Below are positions 22,384-34,822 of a stretch of 64,000 nt of DNA, piece by piece (the stretch's first letter is position 1; each line of letters starts with the position of its first letter). The notes under the pieces were generated by a model. That model was not told the DNA's origin. It searched no databases and saw nothing but the letters and a program-made list of their open reading frames with translations. The stretch covers positions 25,581-89,580 of the forward strand of contig JAKSIF010000009.1 of the NCBI GenBank assembly GCA_024398965.1, in the 5' to 3' direction. The position numbers and the translations under genes were made by a program. This DNA comes from Fibrobacter sp. Lineage in GTDB: Bacteria; Fibrobacterota; Fibrobacteria; Fibrobacterales; Fibrobacteraceae.

Positions 22384-22512
22384 TTACTTGATGTTCACCT
22401 TTGTTACGGAAGGTGCCATGTTGTTTCCTGCCACCTTGACGACGTAATTGCCGCGGGGGAGGGACTCTACAGAAATCTGGCTGTTTCCTGCGGAGGTTAC
22501 TACGTGCTGCCC
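22384..22512 (-). pseudogene. 3' remnant of a secreted-protein gene (basic C-terminal domain only)
   Basis: Minus strand reads GQHVVTSAGNSQISVESLPRGNYVVKVAGNNMAPSVTKVNIK*, resembling the C-terminal domains of the PL10/CE8 genes; no start or signal peptide upstream. Confidence 0.65.
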
Positions 22513-22596
22513 TACGCTATCGTTAACGGCAAGGTCATTACCTCTGACGCAAGCGATGAAAACCTCAGGTCCAAGAAGTATACCTTCGAAGACTAA
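22492..22596 (+). pseudogene. 3' remnant of an unidentified gene
   Basis: Reads GGYYVLPYAIVNGKVITSDASDENLRSKKYTFED* with host-like codons, followed by its own terminator at 22613-22646. Confidence 0.4.
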
Positions 22597-22654
22597 GGTC
22601 TAGAAACTTCAAAGAAAAGGCGCTGTCTACGGGCCGCGCCTTTTCTGTATATCA

Positions 22655-23047
22655 GAAAACTACCGGCAACGCCGGTAGTTCCGTAAAAGCCTTCTGGCGG
22701 TCATGATAACTGTTTATTGAGGTTTGGACCGCCGCTTTTTTAGCGATTTGGCAAAGAGGCGGTCTAATATCCTTATAATTTAGATTTGGACCGCCATTTT
22801 GCCTTGATTAAGACCGTTTTTTTGGATTTCAGATAGCAAAACGAACCAAAAGACGGTCCAAGAGAATGCTTTTAATCAAATGGACCGCCACACTTCTGTG
22901 AAAATGGCGGTCTAAAAATGATATTTGATGTACTTGGACCGCCAAACTGAATATTATGCGCAAAATTATGCAGGTGACAGATTATTGTGCGTGCCCTTGC
23001 ACACCGCTAGTATTGTAAGGCAACGCTCGTATATGAAGAACCACCGG
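22655..23047 (+). mobile_element. Non-autonomous IS200-derived element (MITE-like)
   Basis: 22655-22706 matches 34112-34163 at 49/52 nt (only the 3-nt hairpin loop differs); 22987-23047 matches 34724-34784 at 56/61 nt; no transposase between the ends. Confidence 0.85.
22696..22943. repeat. Array of four 38-bp palindromic units GGCGGTC-N24-GACCGCC
   Basis: Units start at 22696, 22758, 22852 (GACGGTC variant) and 22906; each has exactly 24 nt between the arms. Confidence 0.85.
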
Positions 23048-23268
23048 TTTCGCTCTGTCTATCCAGATGGGAATCCGTTTTTAAAATTTGAAATAAACAA
23101 ATGTGCAGTAGTTGATTGTGAAATGTAAACTGCCGTTTACGTTTTGACCCGTTTATATATATATTATAGAGTGAGGTATGGCTAAGACGGCATGCCGTTT
23201 TAGTTATATTGACAATGAATGTGAAGGCTTCCGATGTCGGAGGTCCCTTTGTTGCGTGGAGAGAAATC

Positions 23269-23853
23269 TTGAAAAGGCTGTACAAAAAAGGTTATACGCT
23301 TATTGAAGTCCTAGTGGTTGTGATCATCATAGGCGTTTTGTCGTCTATGGGGTATGCCGGCTTGAATCAAGCTGTAATCAACGCAAGAACTAAGGATGCC
23401 GCAAGAAACGTAGCTGCTTTCATAAATAGCATTGGAGCTTTGTCTACACAACAAAACAAGGCAATGTGCTTAAAGATTGTTGATGGAAAAACACTGGCTG
23501 CATACAAAGCCGATGATGCTGGTACAGGATGCGATGTGCAGGGTGGCGTTATAGACAAGATTACCTTAGAGGCTGCCTTGAAATTTGTTTCATCAGGAAA
23601 ATCTCCCAATAATGCAGTTACCGTTCTTTCCTCGAATTCTGCAGAAGCTATTGTTAAGCATCGCATCGGTTATAGCCCCTTCCGTGGAGTGTGCTCGTCC
23701 TCTACGGAGTGCTCTGGAGAGGGATTCTATTTAATTCAGTACGGTTCGACAGACTTGTATGCGGCTGTTGCTAAATCTCCCTCTGAACGTGCTGTTGTTT
23801 CGTTTTGGGGCTTTGGTGCAGATGAAAGCAGCATTGGTTGGAGTGAACTATGA
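23269..23853 (+). CDS. Type IV minor pilin, FimT/FimU-like
   Basis: Class III signal KKG|YTLIEVLVVVIIIGVLSSMGY with E5; probable TTG start at 23269 after GGAGA (ORF track start 23209). Confidence 0.8.
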   Translation: MKRLYKKGYTLIEVLVVVIIIGVLSSMGYAGLNQAVINARTKDAARNVAAFINSIGALSTQQNKAMCLKIVDGKTLAAYKADDAGTGCDVQGGVIDKITLEAALKFVSSGKSPNNAVTVLSSNSAEAIVKHRIGYSPFRGVCSSSTECSGEGFYLIQYGSTDLYAAVAKSPSERAVVSFWGFGADESSIGWSEL

Positions 23854-34072: not shown

Positions 34073-34103
34073 AAAGAAAGGCTCCCTTCGGGGAGCCTTT
34101 TTT
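34073..34103 (+). terminator. Intrinsic terminator of the pilin operon
   Basis: AAAGGCTCCC-ttcg-GGGAGCCTTT plus T-run. Confidence 0.85.
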
Positions 34104-34235
34104 GTATAACTGAAAACTACCGGCTAGGCCGGTAGTTCCGTAAAAGCCTTCTGGCGGTCATGAAAGAAGAAATCCTTTGATTAATATTGAAATGCGGTCT
34201 GCCAACTGCATCACAATAAAATCAAAGGATTTAAA

Positions 34236-34673
34236 ATGAATGATAGAAATAAATCAACAGCCCATACCACATGGAATTGTAAGTACCATATCGTGTTTGC
34301 ACCCAAGTTTAGAAGGAAAATTCTATACAATCAGAAACGAGAGCTTGTAGGAAGAATTCTCAGAAAATTGTGCGAATGGAAAGATGTGGAAATAATAGAG
34401 GCCGAAGTCTGTCCAGACCATATTCACATGCTGGTCGCCATACCGCCGAAACTCTCCGTTTCGAGTTTCATGGGGTATTTGAAAGGAAAGAGCAGCCTGG
34501 AATTGAATGACACGGTTCCTGAATTGCAGAATAAGTACGGGAACCGAGTCTTTTGGTGCCGAGGATATTATGTTGACACGGCAGGAAAAAACGCAGACCG
34601 AATTAAGGCGTATATCCGGCAACAGTTAGAGGAGGACAAACTAGGAGAACAACAGTCAATGTTTGGCAAGTAG
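34236..34673 (+). CDS. tnpA: IS200-family Y1 (HUH) transposase
   Basis: CKYHIVFAPKFRR, PDHIHML (HUH), GYLKGKSS, FWCRGYYVDT, IKAYIRQQ. Confidence 0.95.
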   Translation: MNDRNKSTAHTTWNCKYHIVFAPKFRRKILYNQKRELVGRILRKLCEWKDVEIIEAEVCPDHIHMLVAIPPKLSVSSFMGYLKGKSSLELNDTVPELQNKYGNRVFWCRGYYVDTAGKNADRIKAYIRQQLEEDKLGEQQSMFGK

Positions 34674-34822
34674 TGCCCGTTTACGGGCGGCCTAGTAAGG
34701 ACCCTAGCAGGTGGCAGATCGACGTGCGTGCCCTTGCACGCAGCTAGTATTGTAGGGCTACGCCCGTATATGAAGAACCACCGGCGAAGTGAACTGACCC
34801 CAAAAAGTTGGACGGTTTAAAG

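Follow-up and report, generated by a model that had tools for sequence, protein, structure and literature searches.

Non-autonomous derivatives of the IS200/IS605 family (PATEs/MITEs) have a short non-coding interior flanked by the left end (LE), with its subterminal hairpin, and the right end (RE) of an autonomous IS200. The subterminal LE hairpin is the kind of structure bound by Y1 transposases. Arrays of protein-binding sites with inverted arms are known from other settings, such as GTATGA-N16-TCATAC for NikR, the Lrp sites located three turns apart in pap, the NrdR box pairs, and the RctB 39-mers. The REP/BIME of enterobacteria and the REPINs of Pseudomonas are described as short extragenic palindromic units that are clustered in alternating orientation, over-represented at the 3' ends of genes and in convergent intergenic regions, lineage-specific, and targets or neighbors of insertion sequences (IS) (PMC3337134, PMC1525189, PMC4550694). 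The BrickBuilt MITE of Porphyromonas gingivalis, a bacterium of the FCB group, has a repeat-array interior and is always intergenic (PMC4596501).

The window (the whole stretch of 64,000 nucleotides of Fibrobacter sp. DNA that was analyzed) carries an element that resembles each of these systems in part. Like the PATEs/MITEs, it has IS200 ends, and TnpA could be provided in trans by an autonomous copy present in the genome. Unlike them, it carries between these ends a discrete host-type array of four phased palindromes, which also exists outside IS, and not the remains of a collapsed IS. A similar capture involving another arm family was found in a second species (G001). The organization as a MITE with a repeat-array interior is shared with BrickBuilt, whereas BrickBuilt itself is composed of gap-free tandem 23-nt direct repeats with small inverted-repeat ends and has no IS200 ends, spaced palindromes, or variable linkers (PMC4596501). 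As in REP/BIME, the arrays are dispersed extragenic clusters with alternating arm orientation, and the GGCGGTC family to which the window array belongs is multi-locus in one relative (G076). Unlike REP/BIME, the arrays are conserved in their 9–10-bp arms alone, the cores are long, unpaired, and of fixed length, substitutions break the pairing, and no RAYT is present. The spacing of the arrays is quantized in helical turns, which was not found described for REP/BIME in the literature searched. Inverted half-sites, a long non-conserved spacer of fixed length, and sites on one helical face are common to the arrays and to the phased operators of NikR, Lrp, NrdR, and RctB; a fixed half-site span and whole-turn inter-site distances, which characterize operator-type arrays, were both found. 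Unlike these operators, which occupy promoters or origins of specific loci, the arrays are dispersed (approximately 11 per genome), mostly located at gene ends, and equipped with lineage-specific arms.

The search for GGCGGTC-N24-GACCGCC with up to two mismatches returned exactly four matches in the window, three perfect and one with a single mismatch (Table 1). The expected number of matches was 0.16 ± 0.39, and none of the 100 dinucleotide-preserving shuffles reached four, which confirmed the four 38-bp units reported in a first-pass annotation of this DNA. The heptamer GGCGGTC or its complement occurred 15 times in the window, with seven of these occurrences concentrated in the 248 bp of 22696–22943. 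Throughout the assembly (3.59 Mb, 151 contigs), the window array was the sole site with at least three GGCGGTC heptamers within 120 bp, and when one mismatch per arm was allowed, the remaining genome matches stayed at or below the control level (9 vs. 20). The arms reach inward past the heptamer, typically as GGCGGTCTAA on the left and TTGGACCGCC on the right, and each 38-bp unit can be considered as two 10-mers around N18; the N18 between the 9-/10-mers equals N23–24 between the GGCGGTC heptamers. Seven of the eight arms are perfect, the cores differ completely from unit to unit, and the linkers (16–56 bp) contain no ORF. The exact 31-bp start-to-start period noted earlier for the first four half-sites (22696, 22727, 22758, and 22789) held, and it is a special case of a wider rule, as a 38-bp unit and a 24-bp linker make 62 bp, or six turns. 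The degenerate half-site listed at 22812 (GACCGTT) was not counted, as it lacks a correctly spaced partner and is not matched by any site in the homologous arrays.

Single-strand folding of the units was weak (−5 to −11 kcal/mol, z of −1.6 to −7.8). Unit 1 forms a 7-bp stem with a 24-nt loop (−7.1 kcal/mol as DNA), which is followed by the GCTTTTTT run; the terminator scan admits loops of up to 8 nt, and the unit was not called. The whole element folded as RNA with z = −7.8. In this predicted fold, the dominant feature is a 23-nt imperfect inverted repeat at 22804–22879 (78% complementary, 30 nt apart), which covers the linker between units 2 and 3 and the first part of unit 3.

Table 1. Coordinates of the palindromic units, the IS200 sequences, and the sister arrays of the same genome (G000)
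Feature	Position	Strand	Description
Terminator-like hairpin	22613-22646	+	11-bp perfect arms, then T-run; directly left of LE, at apparent insertion target
IS200-type left end (LE) of tnpA-less derivative	22640-22706	+	ends in GGCGGTCATGA = left arm of unit 1
Subterminal LE hairpin	22658-22680	+	10-bp perfect arms, 3-nt loop; stem conserved, loop varies between copies
Unit 1, GGCGGTC-N24-GACCGCC	22696-22733	.	left arm from IS200 LE; GCTTTTTT run 3' of unit
Unit 2, GGCGGTCTAA-N18-TTGGACCGCC	22758-22795	.	62 bp after unit 1 = 6 helical turns
Unit 3, GACGGTCCAA-N18-ATGGACCGCC	22852-22889	.	left arm GACGGTC, one mismatch; start 94 bp after unit 2 = 9 turns
Unit 4, GGCGGTCTAA-N18-TTGGACCGCC	22906-22943	.	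54 bp after unit 3 = 5 turns; GAAAAT directly before
IS200-type right end (RE) of derivative	22970-23049	+	87% identity to RE of full copy
Autonomous IS200 copy	34095-34784	+	tnpA 34236-34673, 145 aa; same LE including one GGCGGTC at 34153
TAGGACTAA arrays, G000	C13:19057, C57:46494, C64:51603, C70:27444, C75:31039, C86:157548		
TAGGACTAA arrays, G000, rest	C97:71348, C97:75635, C108:122268, C111:8300, C129:4388		

The array is the entire interior of a tnpA-less IS200 derivative, in the order LE, four units, and RE. When 22600–23210 was compared with relatives by BLAST, two short blocks alone matched (22637–22709 and 22969–23053), and these blocks recur 690 bp apart in the window at the autonomous copy, whose tnpA product gave a Y1_Tnp match of 132 bits. 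The LE was 93% identical to that of the full copy (34095–34163), and both ends of the derivative also aligned with IS200 copies in G001 and G076, the LE in a four-way alignment. The homology to the three other copies runs through GGCGGTCATGA to 22706, in agreement with the earlier statement that the first arm is the last part of the IS200 left end. The terminal palindrome of the RE is shorter in this derivative than in the other copies, and the LE hairpin is intact. The interior (22707–22969) is overlapped by mechanical ORFs of 44 and 67 aa alone and has no tnpA homology and no transposase gene. No family reached the threshold in an Rfam scan of the element; the LE gave a weak match (23 bits, below threshold) to STnc490, which we take to be an sRNA derived from the 5' UTR of IS200 tnpA. 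With respect to mobility, the element was single-copy in its own genome and among 101 species of the genus, and no syntenic empty site was found in five relatives, in which the region downstream of icd was non-syntenic.

Every aligned IS200 copy, of both subfamilies in the genome, begins right after a different hairpin and T-run, and these IS200 elements seem to insert 3' of intrinsic terminators. Hairpins with a T-run before the IS200 start were seen in the window at 22613–22650 and 34075–34105 and also in L131, L133, and L134. To the left of the element, the minus strand of 22384–22599 contains a 71-codon open frame that ends in LPRGNYVVKVAGNNMAPSVTKVNIK and has no upstream part. This frame resembles what would be left of the C-terminal sorting domain of a secreted protein after truncation at the point where the MITE and the pilin block begin, which suggests a rearrangement at the junction.

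Among the 101 species genomes of the genus, the AT-cored GGCGGTC pattern was present in this genome and in G076 alone. Two four-unit arrays of G076 (C21:37993-38262 and C24:11133-11413) are collinear with the window array, unit for unit; conservation covers the arms and a few nucleotides on the 3' side of each right arm and does not extend to the cores and linkers. Further single GGCGGTC units were found on C25 and C14 of G076. The C21 and C24 arrays have no IS200 ends, and G076 carries the same IS200 at 88% identity. The first-pass annotation had named spacing that is not conserved in other copies as an observation against the pattern; the spacing is conserved, with N23–24 in G076. The homologous steps of the three GGCGGTC arrays are 62/63/74, 94/105/105, and 54/64/64, and the linkers differ by indels of approximately 11 nt. 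At position 4, each arm has either G or T irrespective of the other arm, and unit 1 of all three arrays is followed by a T-run (GCTTTTTT or GTTTTTTTT). The C21 array is located between convergent genes, one of which is flavodoxin-like, and the other homologue is upstream of an MFS transporter gene. The array was not made by the IS, as its homologues stand outside any IS in G076. The GGCGGTC family is native and multi-locus in G076 and an orphan in this genome, and thus its import with the MITE, from a lineage in which it is native, is the most likely origin. A two-unit pattern scan of public genome and metagenome contigs returned chance matches in high-GC genomes alone.

A de novo search of the genome for heptamers that repeatedly form inverted pairs with constant spacing detected a second, much larger family. 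This family, TAGGACTAA-N18-TTAGTCCTA, comprised 46 units in approximately 11 arrays of three to five units (mismatches allowed), all of which were intergenic. The inner arm and the span are common to the GGCGGTC and TAGGACTAA families, and the resulting pattern, GGWCTAA-N18-TTRGWCC, was found in 9 of the 34 members of the genus that were sampled. In the search of 151 genomes of the phylum, the only match outside the genus was on a single strand in one genome of another family, and it was taken to be chance. A third family, TACATAC-N25-GTATGTA, was represented by 31 perfect units in G001. This species harbors a multi-copy IS200 MITE consisting of the same IS200 LE, four TACATAC units, and the same RE, with homologous cores between copies. 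Both ends were seen in the copy on C80 (L026, minus strand, approximately 1290–830), the LE and the start of the RE were seen in the copies on C84 and C85, and further copies share homologous cores. Arrays on C9, C15, and C57 of G001 have TACATAC arms, unrelated cores, and no IS ends. Arrays of this kind, differing in their arms, have thus been acquired by IS200 derivatives on at least two occasions. The TACATAC MITE of G001 was also seen at L095 and L096.

The arm sequences are lineage-specific, with GGCGGTCTAA in G076, TAGGACTAA in this genome, and TACATAC in G001. The literature was searched for the arm motifs in a bacterial context and for such arrays in this genus, and neither was found; the intergenic array class is so far found in this genus only and so far undescribed. 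On C13 and C111, the arrays are simple tandem repeats of 53 bp whose cores are almost identical, and the cores of the other arrays are unrelated. The presence of both young tandem repeats and old, drifted collinear arrays indicates growth by tandem duplication followed by drift, during which the arms and lengths were held. The earlier proposal of hairpins that capture variable sequence does not agree with this pattern, in which the young arrays are tandem duplicates with identical cores and the old homologues are collinear with drifted cores.

Two other palindromes were observed in the genome. GGTCTAA-N16-TTAGACC occurs in two copies with opposite orientation and the same core (G000:C60:841 and C108:163980) and represents a third, minor palindrome type in G000 with the shared inner arm. 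The 30-nt palindrome GGCGGTCTGGGGAATNAGGCTGTGACCGCC is conserved and occurs once per genome in approximately 25 species (e.g., G000:C103:10095-10124); it probably belongs to a conserved gene or RNA and is unrelated to the arrays.

The second IS200 subfamily (tnpA at G000:C78:23965-24321) starts with TTAGTCCT at C78:23776-23783 (L072), and TTAGTCCT constitutes the very first bases of this subfamily in all copies examined from five species (L131-L134). It matches eight of the nine bases of the TAGGACTAA-family arm. The first subfamily has GGCGGTC 15 nt after the LE hairpin. The chance occurrence of an array-type half-site in the LE was roughly estimated to be 1–2% for each subfamily. The array-binding protein may also touch the IS, or half-site motifs may have seeded the captures.

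Eight of the 11 TAGGACTAA arrays are located between convergent genes, 28–90 bp from the stop codons, and the genes beside the arrays are unrelated housekeeping genes, including dnaA, lspA, lgt, a dsbD-like gene, the PBP1 gene, and pmbA. For the convergent cases, T7–8 was observed after the first unit and A7–8 before the last unit. The mean number of T was 4.2 after first units vs. 1.7 after inner units, and the mean number of A was 5.1 before last units vs. 2.95 before inner units. The stems of the end units in this sister family tend to extend into the core, and toward the gene that runs into it, each array end would present a structure resembling an intrinsic terminator. In the window, the array is located 266–327 bp before a pilin-like ORF that starts at 23209 or 23270, which is consistent with the distance of approximately 300 bp given in the first-pass annotation. 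A special link to the pilin operon was not borne out, as the sister arrays adjoin unrelated housekeeping genes, mostly between convergent genes.

One TAGGACTAA array directly follows dnaA, and another is located 3 kb upstream. The array after dnaA is absent at that position in G072, G001, and G076, indicating that the arrays are lineage-specific insertions. A reading of this array as an origin of replication was rejected, as there was no DnaA-box cluster and no GC-skew turn and as the array is missing after dnaA in these three genomes. The absence of Rho was considered as a reason for protein-based termination and was also rejected, as Rho is present.

The steps from unit start to unit start took values of 53, 63, 74, 84, 95, 105, and 125 bp, with none in between. 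For 51 steps from the three arm families, the best period was 10.5 bp (Rayleigh R = 0.907, mean phase of approximately 0), compared with a maximum R of 0.47 among 2000 random step sets subjected to the same period scan. Thirteen independent steps from G042, G046, and G072, which were unseen when the idea was formed, gave a period of 10.55 bp with R = 0.95. For all 64 steps, R was 0.91, and 95% of the steps were within 1.5 bp of a multiple of 10.5, vs. 29% expected. Linkers of equal length were not homologous in sequence, and thus the quantization does not arise from a few shared linker modules.

The information content of 34 pooled units was approximately 2 bits over nine positions, 0.7 bits at the tenth, and approximately 0 outside. 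A partner at exactly N18 was found for 58 of the 67 perfect 9-mers, and the GGACTAA family always had the N18 span and no other. Among the arm variants, two were compensated, eight formed a wobble (G-T) pair, and 19 were broken. Pairing in the cores showed a weak excess over mismatched controls, at the first one to three positions alone. The helical register, the fixed span, the broken pairs, and the independent arms fit double-stranded half-sites for a symmetric protein better than selection for hairpins. Protein binding is thus the best supported of the readings offered in the first-pass annotation, based on the helical phasing, the fixed span, and the two arms that vary independently. The centers of the half-sites within a unit are 27–28 bp apart, a non-integral distance of approximately 2.6 turns. 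Only an elongated protein, or one that bends the DNA, would then have its two subunits on the same face.

The evidence was also weighed against readings in which the single strand is the functional form. If the units were REP/REPIN-like, i.e., ssDNA or RNA stem-loops copied by a Y1 (HUH) transposase (IS200 TnpA or RAYT) and serving as 3'-end stabilizers or terminators, then their inverted arms, extragenic location, and bias to gene 3' ends would be expected. The same holds for the array embedded twice between IS200 ends, the folding of the units, which is better than that of shuffles, the extended stems and T-runs of the outer units, and the one array-type half-site in the LE of each of the two IS200 subfamilies. 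However, helical-turn quantization is meaningless for single strands, loops of 14–24 nt with a strictly fixed length are untypical, and arm substitutions mostly break pairing (19 broken vs. 2 compensated). There is no RAYT, and the two Y1_Tnp genes in the genome belong to ordinary IS200 with their own, unrelated end hairpins. The cores are wholly different between units, and the units are therefore not recent copies; we consider this explanation unlikely. Even less probable, and very doubtful in our view, is a structured non-coding RNA gene or an sRNA expressed from the IS200 left-end promoter in place of the tnpA mRNA. The RNA folding score of the whole element (z = −7.8), the collinearity of the three homologous arrays, and the weak Rfam STnc490 match in the LE are compatible with such an RNA, whereas the lack of an Rfam family at threshold, the conservation limited to palindrome arms that are invariant and not covarying, the G076 homologues standing without the LE promoter context, and the phasing, which argues for a constraint at the DNA level, are not.

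Tandem duplication alone could have left a functionless, minisatellite-like stuffer with arms kept alike by gene conversion or recent origin, as might be suspected from the plain 53-bp tandem repeats of the C13 and C111 arrays and from the GGCGGTC array being single-copy here, with its native family absent from the genome. The cores and linkers are randomized while seven of the eight arms are perfect, lengths change by whole turns only, and the same arms persist in paralogous arrays within G076, which makes this origin quite improbable. A dedicated operator or enhancer array regulating the downstream pilin operon would be placed appropriately at 266–327 bp upstream of the pilin-like ORF, and phased sites are typical of enhancer-binding proteins. 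Its location inside IS200 ends, the G076 homologues, one between a flavodoxin-like gene and its convergent neighbor and the other upstream of an MFS transporter gene, the sister family mostly at the convergent ends of unrelated genes, and the absence of a sigma-54-type promoter on reading 22944–23270 render such a role highly improbable. We give almost no weight to attC- or CRISPR-like sites that capture foreign sequence into variable cores. Conserved arms with variable cores of fixed length are reminiscent of such sites, but the cores matched nothing in phage/plasmid collections or elsewhere in the genome beyond chance 11–14-mers, and the cores within young arrays are identical. CRISPR has direct repeats of 23–47 bp, in contrast to the inverted arms of 7–10 bp here, and GGCGGTC/GACCGCC does not fit the RYYYAAC/GTTRRRY of attC, with no cassettes and no ORF in the linkers. 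The attC-like or REP membership suggested earlier is therefore not retained, as the arm motifs are unfit and there are no cassettes, no RAYT gene, and no compensatory pairing.

On balance, we lean toward the reading that the units are phased half-site pairs for a dimeric DNA-binding protein, that they would also serve as a terminator or insulator module, and that the array here was imported as MITE cargo. The anatomy of the array, its IS200 ends, the homologues outside IS, the phasing, the fixed span, the lack of compensatory pairing, and the genomic contexts are the observations from which we infer protein binding, a terminator or insulator function, and a horizontal origin. Each unit would bind a dimer, or a dimer of dimers, of a putative sequence-specific double-strand DNA-binding protein, and the phasing would align three to five bound complexes on one helix face for joint action. 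The complex, together with outer units consisting of a hairpin and a T-run, could then provide a two-way transcription stop or an insulator between genes. If the cognate protein is present in this genome, the window array would act as a divider between the icd side and the pilin-like operon, and if it is absent, the GGCGGTC copy may be inert. The end units resemble intrinsic terminators and may have a role at the RNA level, and a hairpin-related logic is hinted at by the two cases in which the arrays are associated with a transposon of the ssDNA (Y1) type.

As a broader and more tentative proposal, which we regard as possible, the arrays may represent an undescribed class of chromosomal elements in the genus, composed of fixed-span half-site pairs that have lineage-specific arms and keep an exact helical register. 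A DNA-binding protein that co-evolves rapidly with them would occupy the pairs and thereby create a nucleoprotein boundary between genes (a barrier for transcription, topology, or replication), and IS200 elements, each subfamily with one cognate half-site in its LE, would repeatedly capture and spread the arrays.

For genome annotation, such arrays should not be confused with CRISPR, attC, or REP elements. They can be considered a natural experiment on helical-phase constraint, as homologous linkers change by whole turns only. From the two separate captures by IS200 MITEs, it appears that transposons of the ssDNA type can carry ready-made, putatively regulatory or insulator DNA between lineages, which bears on the spread of non-coding functional modules. 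If the arrays are protein landing pads at gene boundaries, they would offer a sequence-defined handle on the separation of transcription units or the organization of the chromosome in fiber-degrading bacteria.
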